A stretch of DNA of 64,000 nucleotides, taken from positions 277,974 through 341,973 of the forward strand of contig BCKZ01000018.1 of the NCBI GenBank assembly GCA_001600815.1, in the 5' to 3' direction. The position numbers and the translations under genes are program-made. Origin of the DNA: Alloascoidea hylecoeti (lineage: Eukaryota). Below the pieces are notes generated by a model that had not been told where the DNA came from, made no database searches, and worked only from the letters and a program-made list of their open reading frames with translations. Position 1 is the first letter of the stretch, and each line of letters starts with the position of its first letter. Positions 17,355 through 63,438 of this stretch are shown piece by piece.

Positions 17355-18587
17355 TTACCCCAGGTAAGAATGAAGATGTTCTACGGGTGCTTTTCGGGAC
17401 AGTCCAACACGGTATCTCCGCTTGGTTGCAATTGGTTTGGCCTTTGAAATTTTCGTTGATTCATTGCTAGATTTAATTATCTCTGGATCCATATCCAAAT
17501 CTTTAATTTCTTTCTCTTTAAAATCATTATCTGTATACAGAGTCTTCATAACACTTTTGATGCTGTCCGTTGTTACATCCGGTAACGGTGATCGAGGGTC
17601 GATGGATTTTTTAGGCTTTAACGGATCTACCGATTTTGAGTGAAGATCCTTCTGATAATCTGCTTCAGATTGGAGATCATTCGAGCGAAGATGAGTAGAC
17701 AGTAGATTTAATGTTGCCTCAAGAACTTGTAAATCGGAATTGGAAGAAGTTGTTTCTACACTTTGAGACCTTGTGCTTGAAATACTTCGTTCTAGATCTG
17801 ATGATTCTGAGCTTTTATTTGATGAATCTTGGTAGGATGAGACTTTGACACCCAGTAGTTGATTTTTTGTGGGGTATTGCAAGGGAACGTCTTCAGTGGT
17901 TGTTTTAGAAGATCTTTCAGCTTTACGTGTTTTACGTGTTGGTTCCATCGTAGTTTTCGGCCGTTTAATACTTCTTCGTAATTCCTTCACATTTTTCACC
18001 TTCCTCTTCGGTGATTCTCCCATCTTTTGATCCAATTTATGCACATTTAATTGGACTTGATGCACCACCATTTTCTCCTGTTCTTGATCCAACTCAGGAA
18101 GGTCCTCTAAAATATCCTTTGAAGTATTGTAAGTTTTATCTGGCGTTTGTGTTATCGTATCATTTTTATCTTCTTTTCTGGAGTTATTTTCATGCTCAAT
18201 TCTCGCCAAATCAACATAATCTTGACCTATTTCCTGATTAGAATCACTCATAGTTTCAACTTCTTCATCTGAGTCGCCGATAACTAACGGTATTTTGGTC
18301 GTTTGCAGTTGTGGTGTAGTATTGTGATGCTTCACGACATCAGGGGTGTTGCTCTTCGTAGGAATCACAACAATATCAATCTCATCGTTATCATCTCCTT
18401 CAATCTCTTCCTTCTCACACAGAAACACTGTTTTTGCTTTCCTTTTATCAGATCGAAACTGACTTTCATGTTTATGATTAGTTGAATTCGGAGCTGTCAC
18501 CCCACGCTGTATATTTCGGTTTCCTGTAAGAGTTTCCACGAGAGATAAATATAGATCACCATTTGTCACCCCATCGTTTATGCTCAT
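17355..18587 (-). CDS. Uncharacterised, largely disordered protein with C-terminal RVGLSRK..LH motif
   Basis: 410-aa ORF rich in S/T/K/E/D; ends KRRYRVGLSRKAPVEHLHSYLG. Confidence 0.75.
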   Translation of the reverse strand: MSINDGVTNGDLYLSLVETLTGNRNIQRGVTAPNSTNHKHESQFRSDKRKAKTVFLCEKEEIEGDDNDEIDIVVIPTKSNTPDVVKHHNTTPQLQTTKIPLVIGDSDEEVETMSDSNQEIGQDYVDLARIEHENNSRKEDKNDTITQTPDKTYNTSKDILEDLPELDQEQEKMVVHQVQLNVHKLDQKMGESPKRKVKNVKELRRSIKRPKTTMEPTRKTRKAERSSKTTTEDVPLQYPTKNQLLGVKVSSYQDSSNKSSESSDLERSISSTRSQSVETTSSNSDLQVLEATLNLLSTHLRSNDLQSEADYQKDLHSKSVDPLKPKKSIDPRSPLPDVTTDSIKSVMKTLYTDNDFKEKEIKDLDMDPEIIKSSNESTKISKAKPIATKRRYRVGLSRKAPVEHLHSYLG

Positions 18588-29355: not shown

Positions 29356-30374
29356 TTAATCATACCACATTTTAATCAATTCTTCACTGACACCACTTGG
29401 GGTTAAAACCCCAAGATCTGTTATCAAAGCTGTAATATATTCATGTGGTGTAAAATCAAGAATTGGATTATTCTTTAATTCATCTTCAATTATAAGAGAT
29501 TTTGTGCTGAAGTTGTTCAAAAGATTGTTTTTGTTTTCCCCTAAATCATCTGGAGCCAAAGGAAATAATCTTACAAATTTATGAGATTCAGAAACCACAT
29601 AGAAAGGTTTATGAGCATTAGAAGAAAGAACGCCAATTGAATAGGTACCAATGTAATTTATTATACCACCAGTTTCGGCAACACCTTCAGCTCCCATAAA
29701 TACTTTATCGACTTTGTGAATCACACTTCCCACTGCCGAATCGACAATAATAGAGACGGGTATACCATTTTCACGAAGAAGTTTCGTCATTTTGATACCA
29801 TCATTAGACGGTCGAGCCTCTGTACAAATGACCTTAAATCTGATAAACTTTGAAGCAGCATGCAAAAGTAACTTCAGAACAGCTCTAGAATGTGAATGAA
29901 CAAGAATTAGATCATCATCCTTGATAAATGGTAATCCATACTCAGCAATCATATCTCTTGATGCCTTTGATCTTTCCACGAATAGTTTACCATTTTCTAC
30001 TAGATGATTTTTGCATTCCTCCCAGTTACCAGATAAATTATTACGTAGGACGAATCGCATGAATAAATCACATCCTGCTGATAAACTGATTGAGTTTGGA
30101 ACTGATTTCTTCAGTGTATCAGTTGCTTCAGCCAGCAGTTTGATCAATTCGGAAGATGTAGATGCTATACAACTAAATGTCAGGATTTTTCAAATCTTTA
30201 GCTTCTAACTTGTAGTTTCTTACTCTGTTTTACGCTGAGAAGAGTAACGAGTGACTCAATGGCAGCGACAGGCATAGTCATTTCGGGATCTTCTGTTAAG
30301 AACCTCGAATAGGTTGCCGTCACATCAAAGTCTTCTTGCTGTGGCAGTTTCTGGGAGTCTGTCATGTTAGTCAT
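29356..30374 (-). CDS. GCN3: eIF2B alpha subunit, 2 exons (intron 30223-30165); start at 30374 or 30365
   Basis: [66 protein letters not shown]. Confidence 0.97.
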
Positions 30375-30686
30375 TCCGCGAAAAATGGTGAATTTGATGT
30401 GTTAAAAAAGTCTTCCTATGTTAAATTACGTAATCAATGCCCTTTTCTATTGTGTACAGGGCTTTTCTTTTGACATTGACATTGGCTTTGATGCCATAAT
30501 TATCATAATATAATACGTATTATATAGCTTATAATAAGTGGCAGTTTCAGTTCTAGAACCCATCGAAAATGTTATGCTTGATCAGGCCATGCTGTTATGT
30601 ATAAATATTCTGATTACCCCAACCATTAATAAGACATATCCTCTTATTTTTTTCAGCCTTATTAATATTAATAGAGCAAGGAAAAA

Positions 30687-33600
30687 ATGAGTATTAGGAG
30701 TCCCAATAAAGATGCTGACAAACTCCTAAAATTGGTGGTATCTGGTTTTAAACATTTAGATAAAAGTCTTGAAGGGGTCAAAAATAAAAATATTGATTTG
30801 GTAGCATTAGATATAAGAATTGATAATGCAACAATTTATACTTCATACACACTTGTTAAATATGATTCTCAAATCAAACAACTTAGTACTTCTGATGCAA
30901 AGATCGCAATTAAGCTGTTAAAACCAATACAAGGAAAGTTAAGAAAAGCTAGTGAAATTTTAATTGATTTCGATGAGGAGAGTTCACAAATATTAATACC
31001 AAATTTCAAAAGGAATAGCAAAGGGTTTGGTTCCGATATTAATTATAAAGTATCACAGTCAAAATGGTCAATTGCATTCAAGTATCTTTATAACCTAGTA
31101 GATGAAGCAAAAGATAAAAGTGACCGATTCATTGAGTTTATGGAAAAGAAAAATAGCATCGCTGCACCGATTTCGCAACCTGAAACTAAACCACGGAAAA
31201 ATATTATTCCATGGGATGATGATTTTCAAGCAGGATTAATTTTACCATCTAAAAGAAACACCAATTTCTGCGGCAGAACAGCCGTTTTAGAAAAATTAGA
31301 AGAACTATTTGAAATCAAAAGTTCAAAATCTTATAAAAGAAAATCAATTTTATTACAAGGAATATTTGGAATTGGGAAATCTCAAATTTGTATTCAATAT
31401 TCTTATTTAAATCAAACATTCTACGATAGCATTTTATGGATTGATGCTACTGATTTAGAATCCATCAATAAAACCGCAAAACAAACAATAAATGGCATCA
31501 TAAATTATTACTTGTCAAATTCCATTCCCCCAAGAAGTTATAGCGATATTGGGAAAAAGTTTGGAATGCCCAAATTACTGGATAGTCTAGGACGCATAAC
31601 GATTGATAATAAAATAAAAGAAGCTATTAGCCATCATGATAATGCTACCGATATTCCAGAAATGTATATAAAAATTCAACAAAATAATAATTTAATGAAA
31701 GCTATAAGTTATTGGTTATCCCATAGAAAGAATAAAAAATGGCTATTAATCATTAATAATATGGATAAATCAAAGTATCCTAATAAAAACTTAAATCCAA
31801 ACTTAAATCCAAATTTATATGATTTAATTCCTCAATGTGGATGGGGTCATATACTTAGAACAACAACAACAGATGTAAAATCAATTAAAACTGATGATGA
31901 AAAATTTATTTTAAGAATTGCTAGTCCTGAAGATAAAGATAGTCTTGATATATTATTAAAAGCATCAAAAAAATCTATTAATGAATTATCTAACAATGAA
32001 ATTATAAGTGCAAAAAGGATTGTTTCAAAATTAAGAAATCATCCATTATCATTGCAGGTTGCTGGTATTTATATATCGGAAAGTTATTGTTCTTTTACAG
32101 ATTACCGAAGAAAAATATCCAAGACGTCACAGGTTTTATTTAACTATACAATTACATCAGGAAGAGTAGAAACAATTAATAATATGTTTTCAGTTTCTTA
32201 TAATTCATTGAATGATAATGAAAAGACTTTTCTTGATATTTGTGGATTACTTGCAAACCAAACAATACCGAAATTATTAATACAAGAAATTGCAATACAA
32301 TATGATTCTCCTTTACAAAATGATTTAATATATGATAAAACTGTTCAAATACTTGTAAAATATTCATTGATTTTATATTTCCCAGTATCAAAAGTTATAA
32401 GAATTCATCCAATTTTTCATAATTGGCTTTATAATAGGAAGAAAAATTTAATCGATACTACTAAAGACGCAAGTATTATAAAATCAACTATTTGTGCATT
32501 TGTTAAAATTACTTCTGAAAATAATGCTGAGACAATATCATTATTTTATAAAAATAATAATCATATTTCAAAATCAATTGAACATTTTTATTCATTTTTT
32601 GAAAATATTAATCAATCAAATGATAAAGATGATATATTATATCTTGCAAAAAGTTTATACAATAATCTAAATAATCTTTGCAAGTATTATGAAGCCGATA
32701 AACTTTCTGGTTATTTAATTGAAAGATGTGGAGGACCACAGAGCCTTAAAGAAACTAATAATATCAATATCAGAAATAGCATTTACGGTAATGAGCAAAT
32801 CCAATCATTCTATAGTCATGCTATTTTAAAATTATCAATCTATGAGCCACAAAGAGCAATTCAACTATTAGAAAATTGTTTACAATCTCAATCTCATATA
32901 CAAAATGTGATTCCAATTACAAAATCGATATATAATGATAATGATAATCATTCAAAGGATTTTCCAACAAAAATGCATATTCAATTAGCGCTCACAATTG
33001 CATATGGTGAATCAATAAATTTACAAAAATCAATTGAATTATTTAAAGAATCTTTTTTAAATATACAATCTTTAGATACAAATAAAAATTATAGATCAAA
33101 CAATAATTCATCAATTGGTATAATTATTATTGGACTTCAATATTTAGAAGAATTATATTCGAATGATGGCAACCATATCATTATACTTGAAACTCTTTAT
33201 AGTGTTGTTAATAATTATATTGAAATTGCAGGTTATTCAGATTGGTACGCAAGAGTATGCTTAGAGAGATGTTTAAATGAATGCCAAGCAAATTTGACAG
33301 GAGACCATCCTATTTTATTAAAAGTTATGCCAAAATTAGGGACTCTTTATTTTAAAATAGGAGAATATGAAAAAGCTTTACAAGTTTATAATCTCTCATT
33401 AAAAGCAATTGATAACGTTTTTGGTAGATATTGTTTTGAAGCTTTAGATATCGTCGCTTGTATTGTGGAATGTTATGTTAAACTTGGTAATCAAGAGAAA
33501 GCCGATGGCATGTTTGATGATGTTTATGATCGATTTGAACTTACAAGATTACCTGACGATAGAGTTGAATTCTATCTTAGATTAGGCGATCAATACTTTA

Positions 33601-34913
33601 GTAGGGGCAAGTATGATAAAGCAATGGTAATGTATAAATTATATGGAGCGAAAAAAGATACAACTAACCGTCCTGTTATATCCCCAAAAGAACTGGATCG
33701 TGCAAACGATTATCAAAAGATTGGTGAATGGTTAAGACAATCTGGTTCATTTAAAGAATCTCAATCATATTTTAATCAGGCTTCTACTACATTTAGAAAA
33801 AATATGGCAGTCGATCATAAAAGATTCCTTCAATGTAAATATGGTTATGCATGGTGTTCCACAAAAGTTGGCGGAAATCAAGAAGCACATAAGGCATTTG
33901 AACAATGTTATGGTGTATCGAAAATTGTTGAGCCTGAGACTAGCCCCTTTTTAATAGGAAGTATTCATAACCTTGCTCATATTGATTATGTTGAAAAAAA
34001 TTATGATGCGTCTCTTTCAAGATATCAAGAAGGTTATAAATTAGTAAAAAAATTAAACAATGAAAAATATCCACCAAGTGTGTTTCAAATGGGCGTTGCA
34101 AAATCTTTCTTTCATAAAGGAAATTTTAAAGAAGCCCTACATGAATTTAAAGATCTATTATCTTCTTCAAAGAAAAAAAATGGTGAAAACCATAAGTCAA
34201 CACTAAATATTAAACAATTTGTTGGAAAAACATATTATAAAATGAAAGATTATCGTCAATCTATAAAATATTTAAAGGAAGCTGAAGATGGATACGCAAT
34301 GAATAATAAGAATTCTAAATTAAAGAGAAGTGCTGATGAGCTTTGGTGTTTAGCAAATTTAGGTGCTGCTTCGGTTTTCATCAATCCTAATGAAGCAATT
34401 GAAACTCTTAGAAATCTTTTATCTCAAGTAGTGGATAATATGGACGAGATAAAAGATGAAAAACTATTGTGTTATTCATGGCTTGAATTAGGTAGAGCCC
34501 ATTATTTAAAGACGGAATACTATGAAGCTATGAAGTGTCTCAATAATTCATTTGCAGCGGTAGATAATATGGACCCAGATCTTCATATTGAGGTGTTATA
34601 TTTATTTGGCAAGATTTATAGAATATATTTCTTAAAAGACATTGCTTTCAATTGTCTTACTGAAGCTTATACCTTAAGTTTACAAACCAATGGTCCAGAT
34701 CATTTAACAACTAAAGATATTCAACAATACCTTAAACGGACCAATTCTGGTAGAAATAATATAAGCTTGCCCATTCTAAACATATTAGAAGAGAAAGGAG
34801 GTAAAGTGACCATTTTGGAAGCAGATGTCTATGACTTATTAGAAACTGCAACTCTCGTTGATATTCCAGAAGTTACTCCGATTTCCCAAACACCTATGCA
34901 GGTAGCCATATAG
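30687..34913 (+). CDS. NLR-like STAND protein: HeLo-like N-terminal domain, NB-ARC-type NTPase, TPR repeats
   Basis: PSKRNTNFCGR, Walker A GIFGIGKS, SILWIDA, Walker B-like WLLIINNMD, GHILRTTT, HPLSLQVAGIYI, IRIHP; C-terminal TPRs with GDHP/GENH/GPDH spacers. Confidence 0.9.
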   Translation: MSIRSPNKDADKLLKLVVSGFKHLDKSLEGVKNKNIDLVALDIRIDNATIYTSYTLVKYDSQIKQLSTSDAKIAIKLLKPIQGKLRKASEILIDFDEESSQILIPNFKRNSKGFGSDINYKVSQSKWSIAFKYLYNLVDEAKDKSDRFIEFMEKKNSIAAPISQPETKPRKNIIPWDDDFQAGLILPSKRNTNFCGRTAVLEKLEELFEIKSSKSYKRKSILLQGIFGIGKSQICIQYSYLNQTFYDSILWIDATDLESINKTAKQTINGIINYYLSNSIPPRSYSDIGKKFGMPKLLDSLGRITIDNKIKEAISHHDNATDIPEMYIKIQQNNNLMKAISYWLSHRKNKKWLLIINNMDKSKYPNKNLNPNLNPNLYDLIPQCGWGHILRTTTTDVKSIKTDDEKFILRIASPEDKDSLDILLKASKKSINELSNNEIISAKRIVSKLRNHPLSLQVAGIYISESYCSFTDYRRKISKTSQVLFNYTITSGRVETINNMFSVSYNSLNDNEKTFLDICGLLANQTIPKLLIQEIAIQYDSPLQNDLIYDKTVQILVKYSLILYFPVSKVIRIHPIFHNWLYNRKKNLIDTTKDASIIKSTICAFVKITSENNAETISLFYKNNNHISKSIEHFYSFFENINQSNDKDDILYLAKSLYNNLNNLCKYYEADKLSGYLIERCGGPQSLKETNNINIRNSIYGNEQIQSFYSHAILKLSIYEPQRAIQLLENCLQSQSHIQNVIPITKSIYNDNDNHSKDFPTKMHIQLALTIAYGESINLQKSIELFKESFLNIQSLDTNKNYRSNNNSSIGIIIIGLQYLEELYSNDGNHIIILETLYSVVNNYIEIAGYSDWYARVCLERCLNECQANLTGDHPILLKVMPKLGTLYFKIGEYEKALQVYNLSLKAIDNVFGRYCFEALDIVACIVECYVKLGNQEKADGMFDDVYDRFELTRLPDDRVEFYLRLGDQYFSRGKYDKAMVMYKLYGAKKDTTNRPVISPKELDRANDYQKIGEWLRQSGSFKESQSYFNQASTTFRKNMAVDHKRFLQCKYGYAWCSTKVGGNQEAHKAFEQCYGVSKIVEPETSPFLIGSIHNLAHIDYVEKNYDASLSRYQEGYKLVKKLNNEKYPPSVFQMGVAKSFFHKGNFKEALHEFKDLLSSSKKKNGENHKSTLNIKQFVGKTYYKMKDYRQSIKYLKEAEDGYAMNNKNSKLKRSADELWCLANLGAASVFINPNEAIETLRNLLSQVVDNMDEIKDEKLLCYSWLELGRAHYLKTEYYEAMKCLNNSFAAVDNMDPDLHIEVLYLFGKIYRIYFLKDIAFNCLTEAYTLSLQTNGPDHLTTKDIQQYLKRTNSGRNNISLPILNILEEKGGKVTILEADVYDLLETATLVDIPEVTPISQTPMQVAI

Positions 34914-62043: not shown

Positions 62044-63438
62044 ATGTCTTTACCAAAATTATTGACTCAAATTTTGAAGAAACATCTCCATGAAATGTAT
62101 ACAAATTTGAATAGAAAATTGCTTCTAGTCTGATAATCCCTAACTTTTTTTTTCTTTTTTTTCTTTTTTTTTTTGAACCTTCCAGTGATTCCTTTGAAAT
62201 AATCAAATCTAGTCCTAGCTTTGAAGATTTAAAATTACCACAAGAACTAAATTATTCACCATTTATATTCATACCGGATGAACATTTACTAGCTATAAAC
62301 AAAAGAAATCTTATAGAATTGTTTGTTGAATCAAGATCACAGTTTTGGGAATGTGCTGATAAACCAATTGATACATGTAAGAACATCTTAAATAGTGCTA
62401 CTATAGGGTTATTGGTATCTTCTACCGAATTCACAACAATAATTAATGCTAGGTATGTTATTACTTTTCTACATTGATCATTCTTGAAACAATTATTAAT
62501 CTTTGTCAAATAGGGCCTCTTTTATACTGCAAAATGAACTTGAGGAATTGTTATGGGATCTTCAATTCATTAATATTGTTGTGCATTCAAGAAATAATAA
62601 GTTTAACAAATCACCATTATTATTTGAATATAAGAAAAGAATTACAAGTAAAATCCTTGAGATTTATATGGAGTCTTCGTATTCTTCTTCTATAAATTTT
62701 AATACGTCAAAATTTGATATATTTAACTTTTTCATCATAGAAGTAGAAAATACACTTAAATCTGCTTCTAAGCATATTCATAATTATTATTGTTGGACGT
62801 ATTTAAGATATTTAGTTTCAACTATATTATCTTTTTATAGCTGGCTTGATTATGATAAGGAGAAATTTCCATTAAAAGAAATAAAATTACACTGGAATAA
62901 AATTAAAAAACCTATTGAAAACTGGTGTTTTCCAATAAATGAGAAAATAAAAAGAGATATTTCTGCGCAATCATTCTTTCTTGATTTTATATTATTTAAA
63001 CCATCTAAGAATATAATTAATTCTTTTTCAAAGTTATCATTTACTGATAAAAATAATAATAAAAAAAATATTATTATATCAGATCTTTTAAATGAGTTAT
63101 ACTATTCACAACAAGAAGTTTATGATTATTTATTAAATCTATGGGAAAAATATAATCAATTAATTGATATTGGTGTTGATATTAATAAATCAGAATCTGC
63201 TTTATTTCTTTTCAAAATTGCAATTGTTAAGCTTTATGTCAATGATTATAAAAAGGTTCTAGAGTTATTAAACCTAATTGCTTCCTCGTTTAATATTTCA
63301 GTTAATTGGTATAATAATAATATTGTTATAAATACCGAAAATAATTGTTCTATTGATAAACAGGATATTGGATATAAATCTGTTCTTTGGATTATTAAAA
63401 GAATTAACCACGCAAATTCCGGTCTAGGCTTGAAATGA
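62044..63438 (+). CDS. ECM9: Prenyltransferase alpha-subunit repeat protein (Ecm9/PTAR1), 3 exons (62044-62096, 62186-62452, 62514-63438)
   Basis: In-frame splicing gives ATIGLLVSSTEFTTIINAR, KFNKSPLLFEYKK, SASKHIHNYYCWTYLR, RDISAQSF. Confidence 0.75.

Follow-up and report, generated by a model that had tools for sequence, protein, structure and literature searches.

An all-in-one NLR gene of a budding yeast carries a predicted helical head without a hydrophobic N-terminal segment

Whether a budding yeast can encode a nucleotide-binding oligomerization domain-like receptor (NLR), and what the N-terminal head of such a protein could do without a hydrophobic first helix, are the questions raised by an intronless open reading frame (ORF) of 1408 codons in Alloascoidea hylecoeti. 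The ORF lies in a 64,000-nucleotide stretch of contig BCKZ01000018.1 (assembly GCA_001600815.1, positions 277,974 to 341,973 of the forward strand), here called the window, from whose first nucleotide all coordinates are counted. An initial annotation, made from the sequence alone, had described the product as an NLR whose N-terminus looks HeLo-like but lacks the hydrophobic first helix. In the available passages of a fungal NLR survey, 38 Saccharomycotina genomes gave no matches, NLRs were linked to multicellularity and unicellular fungi were argued to gain little from death-inducing NLRs (PMC4986451). Accessible portions of two further papers describe Saccharomycotina as an exception to NLR presence (PMC9119436) and repeat the absence of NLRs from yeasts, the latter also emphasizing what the extreme N-terminal helix contributes to membrane targeting (PMC12881547, 2025). 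Our search of a limited literature collection returned no report of an NLR in Saccharomycotina.

Architecture of the protein and its relatives

The protein consists of a predicted helical head, a P-loop nucleotide-binding oligomerization domain (NOD) and C-terminal tetratricopeptide repeats (TPRs), the three-part architecture of an all-in-one NLR. Within the query Pfam assigns only TPR families, all of them to the C-terminal third (TPR_12 with E = 3.6e-31 over six stretches; TPR_2, TPR_1 and TPR_10 likewise pass the cut-off). Through an exhaustive phmmer search of 1.84 billion representative proteins with residues 1-700, we obtained 3568 matches at E <= 1e-3, 426 at E <= 1e-10 and nine at E <= 1e-30. 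The best full-length matches have E values of 1e-37 to 1e-27, and their alignments reach about query residue 660. When 15 of the 150 listed matches were scanned with Pfam, HeLo (PF14479) was found in seven, NB-ARC above the Pfam cut-off in seven (11 at E <= 0.01) and DUF7779 with TPR_10/TPR_12 in most. The profile of an alignment termed A2, which has 17 rows dominated by HeLo-NLR relatives and 14 HeLo sequences among them, matched the solved structures of HET-S (2wvn, 3.5e-12), the STAND regulator AfsR (5.4e-10) and the TPRs of kinesin light chain (5e-55). The NLR call of the initial annotation, carried by the phmmer homology of the NOD and by the TPR_12 repeats, is therefore right through transitive homology and not through a direct family match. 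A word-indexed protein search with residues 1-500 gave nothing at E <= 1e-3, low-complexity words probably having filled the candidate list, and phmmer of the NOD against PDB sequences returned chance-level rows only.

The host is a budding yeast (Saccharomycotina), as judged from the neighbouring Dbp7-type helicase, whose best named relatives are 50-56% identical and come from Saccharomycotina only (Wickerhamomyces, Cyberlindnera, Babjeviella, Pachysolen, Trichomonascus, Komagataella and Nadsonia). The nearest named NLR relatives among the matches listed are 11 proteins of Rhizina undulata, one of Ascobolus immersus and one of Orbilia javanica, genera that we take to represent early-diverging classes of Pezizomycotina. 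The HeLo/NB-ARC/TPR domain order of these proteins (for example R. undulata KAL7271330.1, A. immersus RPA74722.1 and O. javanica KAK6337134.1) is that of the query. Their NODs are about 26-30% identical to that of the query, with phmmer E values down to 1e-37, and the C-terminal HeLo helix motif and TPR_12-type repeats are shared, as is a linker that reads PFqEF in the relatives and IPWDDDF in the query. Apart from their non-yeast hosts, the relatives differ from the query in giving Pfam matches to HeLo and NB-ARC, whereas the query gives neither. Besides P0003, which is the query gene itself cut at a contig end, only two sequences of yeast type were present among the matches listed, the NCBI assembly proteins P0019 and P0020.

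The NOD keeps its nucleotide-binding loop but has lost two catalytic residues that most relatives retain. We aligned 36 of the 42 sequences considered, skipping six without a recognizable P-loop. Walker A is intact in the query. In Walker B, Asn357 stands where the relatives mostly carry Asp (WLLLVDNHD), an exchange also seen in P0020 and in the Rhizina relative P0009, and the conserved sensor-I Arg of TTR/TSR is replaced by Thr394, with Ser at that column in P0020. A GLPL-like motif (HPLSLQVAG, residues 452-460) aligns with LPLALDQAGAY of the relatives, and an MHD-like motif (IRIHPIFHNW, residues 571-580) with FWIHPLVHAW. With both of these residues replaced, the NOD probably binds nucleotide and hydrolyses it inefficiently. 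These exchanges, like the budding-yeast host, had gone unmentioned in the initial annotation. Between Walker B and RNBS-B the query also has an Asn/Pro-rich insertion (NKNLNPNLNPNL, 31776-31820) that the relatives do not have, and in its DNA the short direct repeat aacttaaatcca occurs twice.

The head domain and its probable kinship with HeLo

The query head has no hydrophobic segment capable of spanning a membrane. The ORF opens with MSIRSPNKDADKLLKLVV, and the strings singled out in the initial annotation are all present: the first 18 residues, LVVSGFKHLDKSL at residues 16-28 (30732-30770), DLVALDIRID at 37-46 (30795-30824) and KWSIAFKYLYNLVDEAKDKSDRF at 126-148 (31062-31130). For comparison with 14 HeLo-bearing relatives we counted positions from an invariant Leu (L13 of the query) as anchor. 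The query has 12 residues before the anchor and the relatives 13-20 (48 in P0028). The mean Kyte-Doolittle (KD) hydropathy of these residues is -1.48 in the query compared with +0.41 to +1.77 in the relatives; five are charged, compared with 1-4, and one is Gly or Ala, compared with 3-8. Within the first 45 residues the best 19-residue KD window of the query scores 0.53 and those of the relatives 1.12-2.34. The best 18-residue hydrophobic moment is 0.62 in the query and 0.30-0.51 in the relatives, and the first 32 residues have a net charge of +3 compared with -2 to +1. The polar start and the missing Gly-rich hydrophobic first helix, both noticed in the initial annotation, are borne out by these values. 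Judged by the same values, the predicted helix 1 of the query, instead of being hydrophobic, is cationic and strongly amphipathic. The best KD windows of the two remaining yeast-type heads, at 1.21 and 1.45, are intermediate.

The last third of the head appears to be HeLo-derived, with consistent though modest support. A hidden Markov model (HMM) built from the three yeast-type heads (query, P0019 and P0020) was used, with all filters disabled, to search the N-terminal regions of 81 phmmer matches, which had been cut 45 residues ahead of the P-loop. Each of the top six regions carries HeLo, and they align at one and the same place (E values: P0006 1.6e-6, P0015 0.0035, P0004 0.0069, P0097 0.021, P0017 0.068 and P0014 0.095). 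Query residues 92-152, approximately, correspond to positions of about 108-184 of the Pfam HeLo profile, which represent the C-terminal HeLo helices, and in P0006, P0015 and P0014 the aligned stretch lies inside the Pfam HeLo envelope. The region of the motif K.RW...dk..L..l..dL.ky belongs to the part of the head for which HeLo homology is thus modestly supported. In two MAFFT runs on different inputs the whole head is colinear with HeLo; L13 in helix 1 and L78 in helix 3 are invariant, and W127 and F180 nearly so. Across the three yeast-type sequences the linker residues W176, D178, D179 and F180 are invariant and the bundle-core positions are kept. After query residue 98 the alignment shows a 189-column insert in the relatives, whose heads have about 300 residues compared with about 160 in the query. 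The remainder of the head would most simply be the divergent rest of the same bundle, and we consider it probable that the query carries a HeLo-derived NLR head.

AlphaFold2 (AF2), run on alignment A2, predicts four long helices over residues 6-159 (mean predicted local distance difference test score, pLDDT, 75.1; predicted template modelling score 0.65), in agreement with the helical head of about 155 residues described before. The single-sequence prediction places helices at 8-32, 68-89 and 124-157 and is unusable for a fold search because its pLDDT is 46.7. In the A2-based model the N-terminus of the NLR would be a four-helix bundle whose helix 1 is free, as in the four-helix-bundle (4HB) executioners (MLKL 4HB, plant coiled-coil (CC) and CC-R domains, HeLo-like domains). 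Executioner bundles of NLRs and of necroptosis appear repeatedly among the top VIA-align matches, and the structure matches (Rx-CC, MLKL, NRC2) are not above the background of helical bundles. AF2 models of HeLo, HeLo-like and Goodbye-like heads are described in the literature as having the MLKL four-helix core in common and differing mainly at the N-terminal helix.

In HET-S, the hydrophobic Gly/Ala-rich N-terminal segment is a membrane-spanning helix. The HET-S HeLo domain of Podospora anserina (PDB 2WVN/2WVO, PF14479) is matched by the heads of the relatives at 3.5e-12, and the query shares with these heads the C-terminal helix motif and the overall helical bundle. HET-S is a separate effector, whereas the query head is fused to the NLR, has no amyloid partner gene next door and begins with a polar segment where the Pezizomycotina HeLo-NLRs have a Gly/Ala-rich hydrophobic start. 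The N-terminus of the query, where two-component NLRs of the NWD2/HET-S type carry a short amyloid motif, is occupied by the predicted bundle. According to the available text of a 2025 study, HET-S is switched on via its amyloid prion-forming domain and depends on its extreme N-terminal helix to be targeted to membranes (PMC12881547). Plant CC-NLRs, too, carry their bundle N-terminal to the NB-ARC. In MLKL 4HB and plant CC/CC-R domains (Rx, NRC2, NRG1.1, MLA13 and ZAR1-type), helix 1 is amphipathic and not membrane-spanning, as in the query, but these domains have no detectable sequence similarity to the query head.

A number of results weigh against a HeLo origin of the whole head, or against its still being active. 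Pfam finds no NB-ARC, NACHT or HeLo domain in the 1408 residues of the query, and the HeLo, Helo-like, SesA, MLKL and RPW8 profiles have no match at E <= 10 in the query or in the two yeast-type relatives. An HMM of HeLo domains from seven relatives does not match the query at E <= 1 among 84 N-terminal regions, and roughly nine others of the about 15 HeLo-bearing regions reach E values of only 0.9-12 with the yeast-head HMM. An hhalign comparison of the three yeast heads with 15 HeLo heads gives a probability of 9% and E = 0.0036 over 56 columns, confined to the C-terminal part; the N-terminal halves align at E = 0.29 over nine columns, and 73 of 435 column shuffles attain their global score of 4.87. 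The AF2 model is not independent of the HeLo hypothesis because its alignment held 14 HeLo sequences. Foldseek of the head model against PDB gave no match at E <= 1e-3, and HET-S is absent from the top 50 of both VIA lists. The first 10-14 residues of the other two yeast-type heads are unlike those of the query, so that the extreme N-terminus is unconserved among the three and relaxed constraint fits better than an active warhead. The yeast-head profile found nothing below E = 0.1 in PDB, phmmer of the head against PDB sequences gave chance-level rows only, and ESM Atlas held no usable match to residues 1-175. Of the HeLo likeness seen in the initial annotation, the kWai... end motif, which scores with the yeast-head HMM, and the colinearity of the head stand, whereas the D..l.l+l half is without significant similarity. 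The four-helix fold proposed for checking is predicted by AF2, with HeLo rows in the alignment, and has no Foldseek match at E <= 1e-3.

Possible modes of action and competing explanations

We propose that a HeLo/NB-ARC/TPR all-in-one NLR survives in this budding yeast, with a compacted, divergent HeLo head that would act amphipathically, a reading for and against which we find the case evenly matched. Loss of the HeLo insert would have left a compact four-helix bundle, and the hydrophobic Gly/Ala-rich N-terminal segment would have been replaced by the short polar start and the cationic amphipathic helix 1. The TPR part would keep the NLR off by autoinhibition until a cue leads to nucleotide-dependent oligomerization of the P-loop NOD. 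The head bundles would then cluster and release helix 1, whose Lys-rich amphipathic face may bind membranes peripherally or as an amphipathic funnel, in the style of the MLKL 4HB or plant CC domains and not by HET-S-type insertion. That the head has retained membrane activity is possible but somewhat doubtful. More tentative still, and on balance unlikely, is the proposal that a working NLR has persisted since the ancestor shared with filamentous ascomycetes and that its HeLo-derived head now acts through a cationic amphipathic helix where a hydrophobic one used to insert.

Two alternatives concern the gene itself. If the gene model were incomplete, a spliced upstream exon could supply a canonical hydrophobic first helix, as the initial annotation had considered; this we regard as very improbable, and an upstream coding exon of any kind seems unlikely. 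In-frame TAA and TAG codons stand four to five codons 5' of the ATG, so a splice acceptor is only possible in the last 12 bases or within the ORF. The pyrimidine tract followed by CAG at about 30640-30656 could speak for such an exon, but stops in all three frames follow before or at the ATG. The other candidate is a mini-ORF of 20 codons (30437-30499, forward strand), about 190 bp 5' of the ATG, which reads MPFSI and then a hydrophobic run. PFSI also opens the HeLo domains of several relatives and occurs once in the six-frame translation of the window. As a fossil first helix the mini-ORF was rejected: a stop codon closes it, and its score with an HMM of HeLo N-termini is 0.5 bits (E = 70), which makes it probably a chance occurrence. 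The ATG has a good A-rich context (AGCAAGGAAAAAATGAGT), P0019 and P0020 likewise begin with MS and align from residue 1, and a divergent gene of the IF-2B family appears to start about 320 bp away. That the ORF is a non-functional pseudogene or has arisen by chance is barely credible. The degenerate catalytic residues of the NOD and the fact that P0019 and P0020 are known only as truncated gene calls would fit such an explanation. Against it, the ORF has 28% G+C and its own base composition predicts about one stop per 11 codons, giving ln P(no stop) = -130 over the 1408 stop-free codons; the other five frames hold 86-206 stops each across the same span, so the ORF is not a chance product. Homology moreover covers more than 1200 residues.

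The remaining alternatives accept the gene and question the head. An unrelated helical segment may have replaced the front of the domain, so that the first 90 residues or so are not HeLo-derived and only the last helices and the linker are shared. The N-terminal half indeed has no significant similarity to HeLo, swaps of N-terminal domains are known among fungal NLRs according to the available part of the survey (PMC4986451), and P0007 and P0013, from the same Rhizina clade, carry alpha/beta-hydrolase heads. The colinear MAFFT alignment with an invariant Leu in both helix 1 and helix 3 nevertheless argues for descent as a whole, the helices are compatible, in length and order, with one bundle that includes the homologous last helix, and a swap within a four-helix bundle would need its packing to be kept; we hold front replacement to be improbable. 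A stronger competitor, though still less likely than retained membrane activity, is that the HeLo-derived head is disarmed and no longer membrane-active, serving as scaffold, adaptor or regulator or being on its way to loss, in a protein whose NOD no longer cycles. This would agree with the lost hydrophobic segment and the 10-14 unconserved N-terminal residues of the three yeast-type sequences, with the Walker B Asn and sensor-I Thr of the query and with the state of its relatives: P0020 has the same Asn, Ser at sensor I and no P-loop, and P0019 leaves the homology after about 240 residues and ends at 274. The gene is also single-copy with housekeeping genes around it, whereas NLRs typically form variable clusters, and the survey argument about unicellular fungi, as given in its available passages, points the same way (PMC4986451). 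The disarmed state is harder to reconcile with a 1408-codon ORF in which the P-loop is intact and the GLPL-like and MHD-like motifs are conserved, with the bundle-core positions kept in three yeast-type sequences, and with the unusually high moment and positive charge of helix 1, which look selected and not random. The Walker B change need not mean decay, because one Rhizina relative also has Asn.

The locus, its yeast-type relatives and what the gene may mean

The features of the NLR gene are collected in Table 1. Its neighbours, namely RPC5, the IF-2B family gene, the Dbp7 helicase, an MNE1-like gene and CBF/Mak21, are housekeeping genes, and no HeLo-type effector gene was present next to the NLR gene among the neighbours identified, as had been stated before. 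Elsewhere in the window the genes are ordinary housekeeping ones as well (bZIP, IPK, tRNA U5-methyltransferase, Ras, WAPL, UCH, COQ7, NIBRIN-BRCT and others). Three ORFs have no Pfam family at E <= 1e-5 (50-2191, forward, 713 residues; 17355-18587, reverse, 410 residues; 62668-63438, forward, 256 residues). The IF-2B-family ORF (29356-30366, reverse) matches only positions 65-280 of the 280 in its profile; by eye, an ATG-started piece of this gene lies at about 30240-30366 on the reverse strand, after a short GTAAGA...TAG stretch, and the gene probably has a 5' intron. Codon 77 of the NLR ORF (30915-30917) is CTG, one of only three in the ORF, and the column is Leu in all three yeast-type heads, which is consistent with standard decoding of CUG as Leu, judged from one informative codon.

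Table 1. Position and basis of features of the NLR gene (window coordinates)
Feature	Position	Strand	Basis
Candidate TATA box, TATAAATA, about 85 bp 5' of the ATG	30600..30607	+	Consensus match, read from the sequence
Whole NLR gene, intronless ORF of 1408 residues (head, NOD, TPR)	30687..34913	+	ORF list and translation
Polar N-terminal 12 residues (MSIRSPNKDADK), aligned in A2 to the Gly/Ala-rich hydrophobic segment of HeLo relatives	30687..30722	+	
Predicted four-helix bundle head, helices 6-31, 37-58, 68-102 and 121-159	30702..31163	+	AF2 on A2
Residues 92-152, detectable homology to the Pfam HeLo C-terminal helices of related NLRs; contains KWSIAFKYLYNLVDEAKDKSDRF	30960..31142	+	
Linker motif IPWDDDF, counterpart of the pre-NOD PFqEF of relatives	31206..31226	+	Alignment A2
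Walker A / P-loop GIFGIGKS, residues 225-232, intact	31359..31382	+	Aligns with GMGGIGKSQ of relatives
Walker B region WLLIINNMD, residues 352-360	31740..31766	+	NOD alignment
RNBS-B / sensor-I region ILRTTTTD, residues 389-396	31851..31874	+	NOD alignment
Helical and winged-helix parts of the NOD, GLPL-like to MHD-like motif	32040..32426	+	NOD alignment
C-terminal TPR repeats, residues about 830-1300, limits approximate	33174..34586	+	Pfam

The two yeast-type relatives look damaged or cut. P0019 has 274 residues and leaves the homology after about 240, and P0020 has 423 residues and GNNNISQRQ in place of the P-loop; gene decay, assembly error or a contig end could account for this. The head profile found only P0003 and P0019 among the proteins of 84-315 residues in a collection of 5.8 billion, and a scan of metagenome contigs gave 595 pattern matches, none of which was confirmed. 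In a quick, unrooted maximum-likelihood tree of the NOD (32 rows, four fragments under 300 residues having been dropped), the three yeast-type sequences share one branch (Shimodaira-Hasegawa-like approximate likelihood ratio test, SH-aLRT, 94), have long branches and fall outside the clade of Rhizina paralogues (99); the composition of the query deviates from the tree model. The topology fits old vertical descent with loss elsewhere, although an old transfer is also conceivable.

An intact gene of NLR architecture in a core Saccharomycotina region contrasts with surveys that report none in yeasts, an absence that had been used to tie NLRs to multicellularity. As the gene is intact and only two related fragments occur among the matches listed, it either stands as a counter-example or shows the loss in progress. 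For the HeLo/4HB head it amounts to a natural experiment as well, with the bundle kept and the segment thought essential for membrane attack replaced. If the proposed amphipathic mode of action is true, NLR-controlled membrane attack or regulated cell death would exist in Saccharomycotina, and the HeLo/4HB family would be able to work without a hydrophobic warhead.

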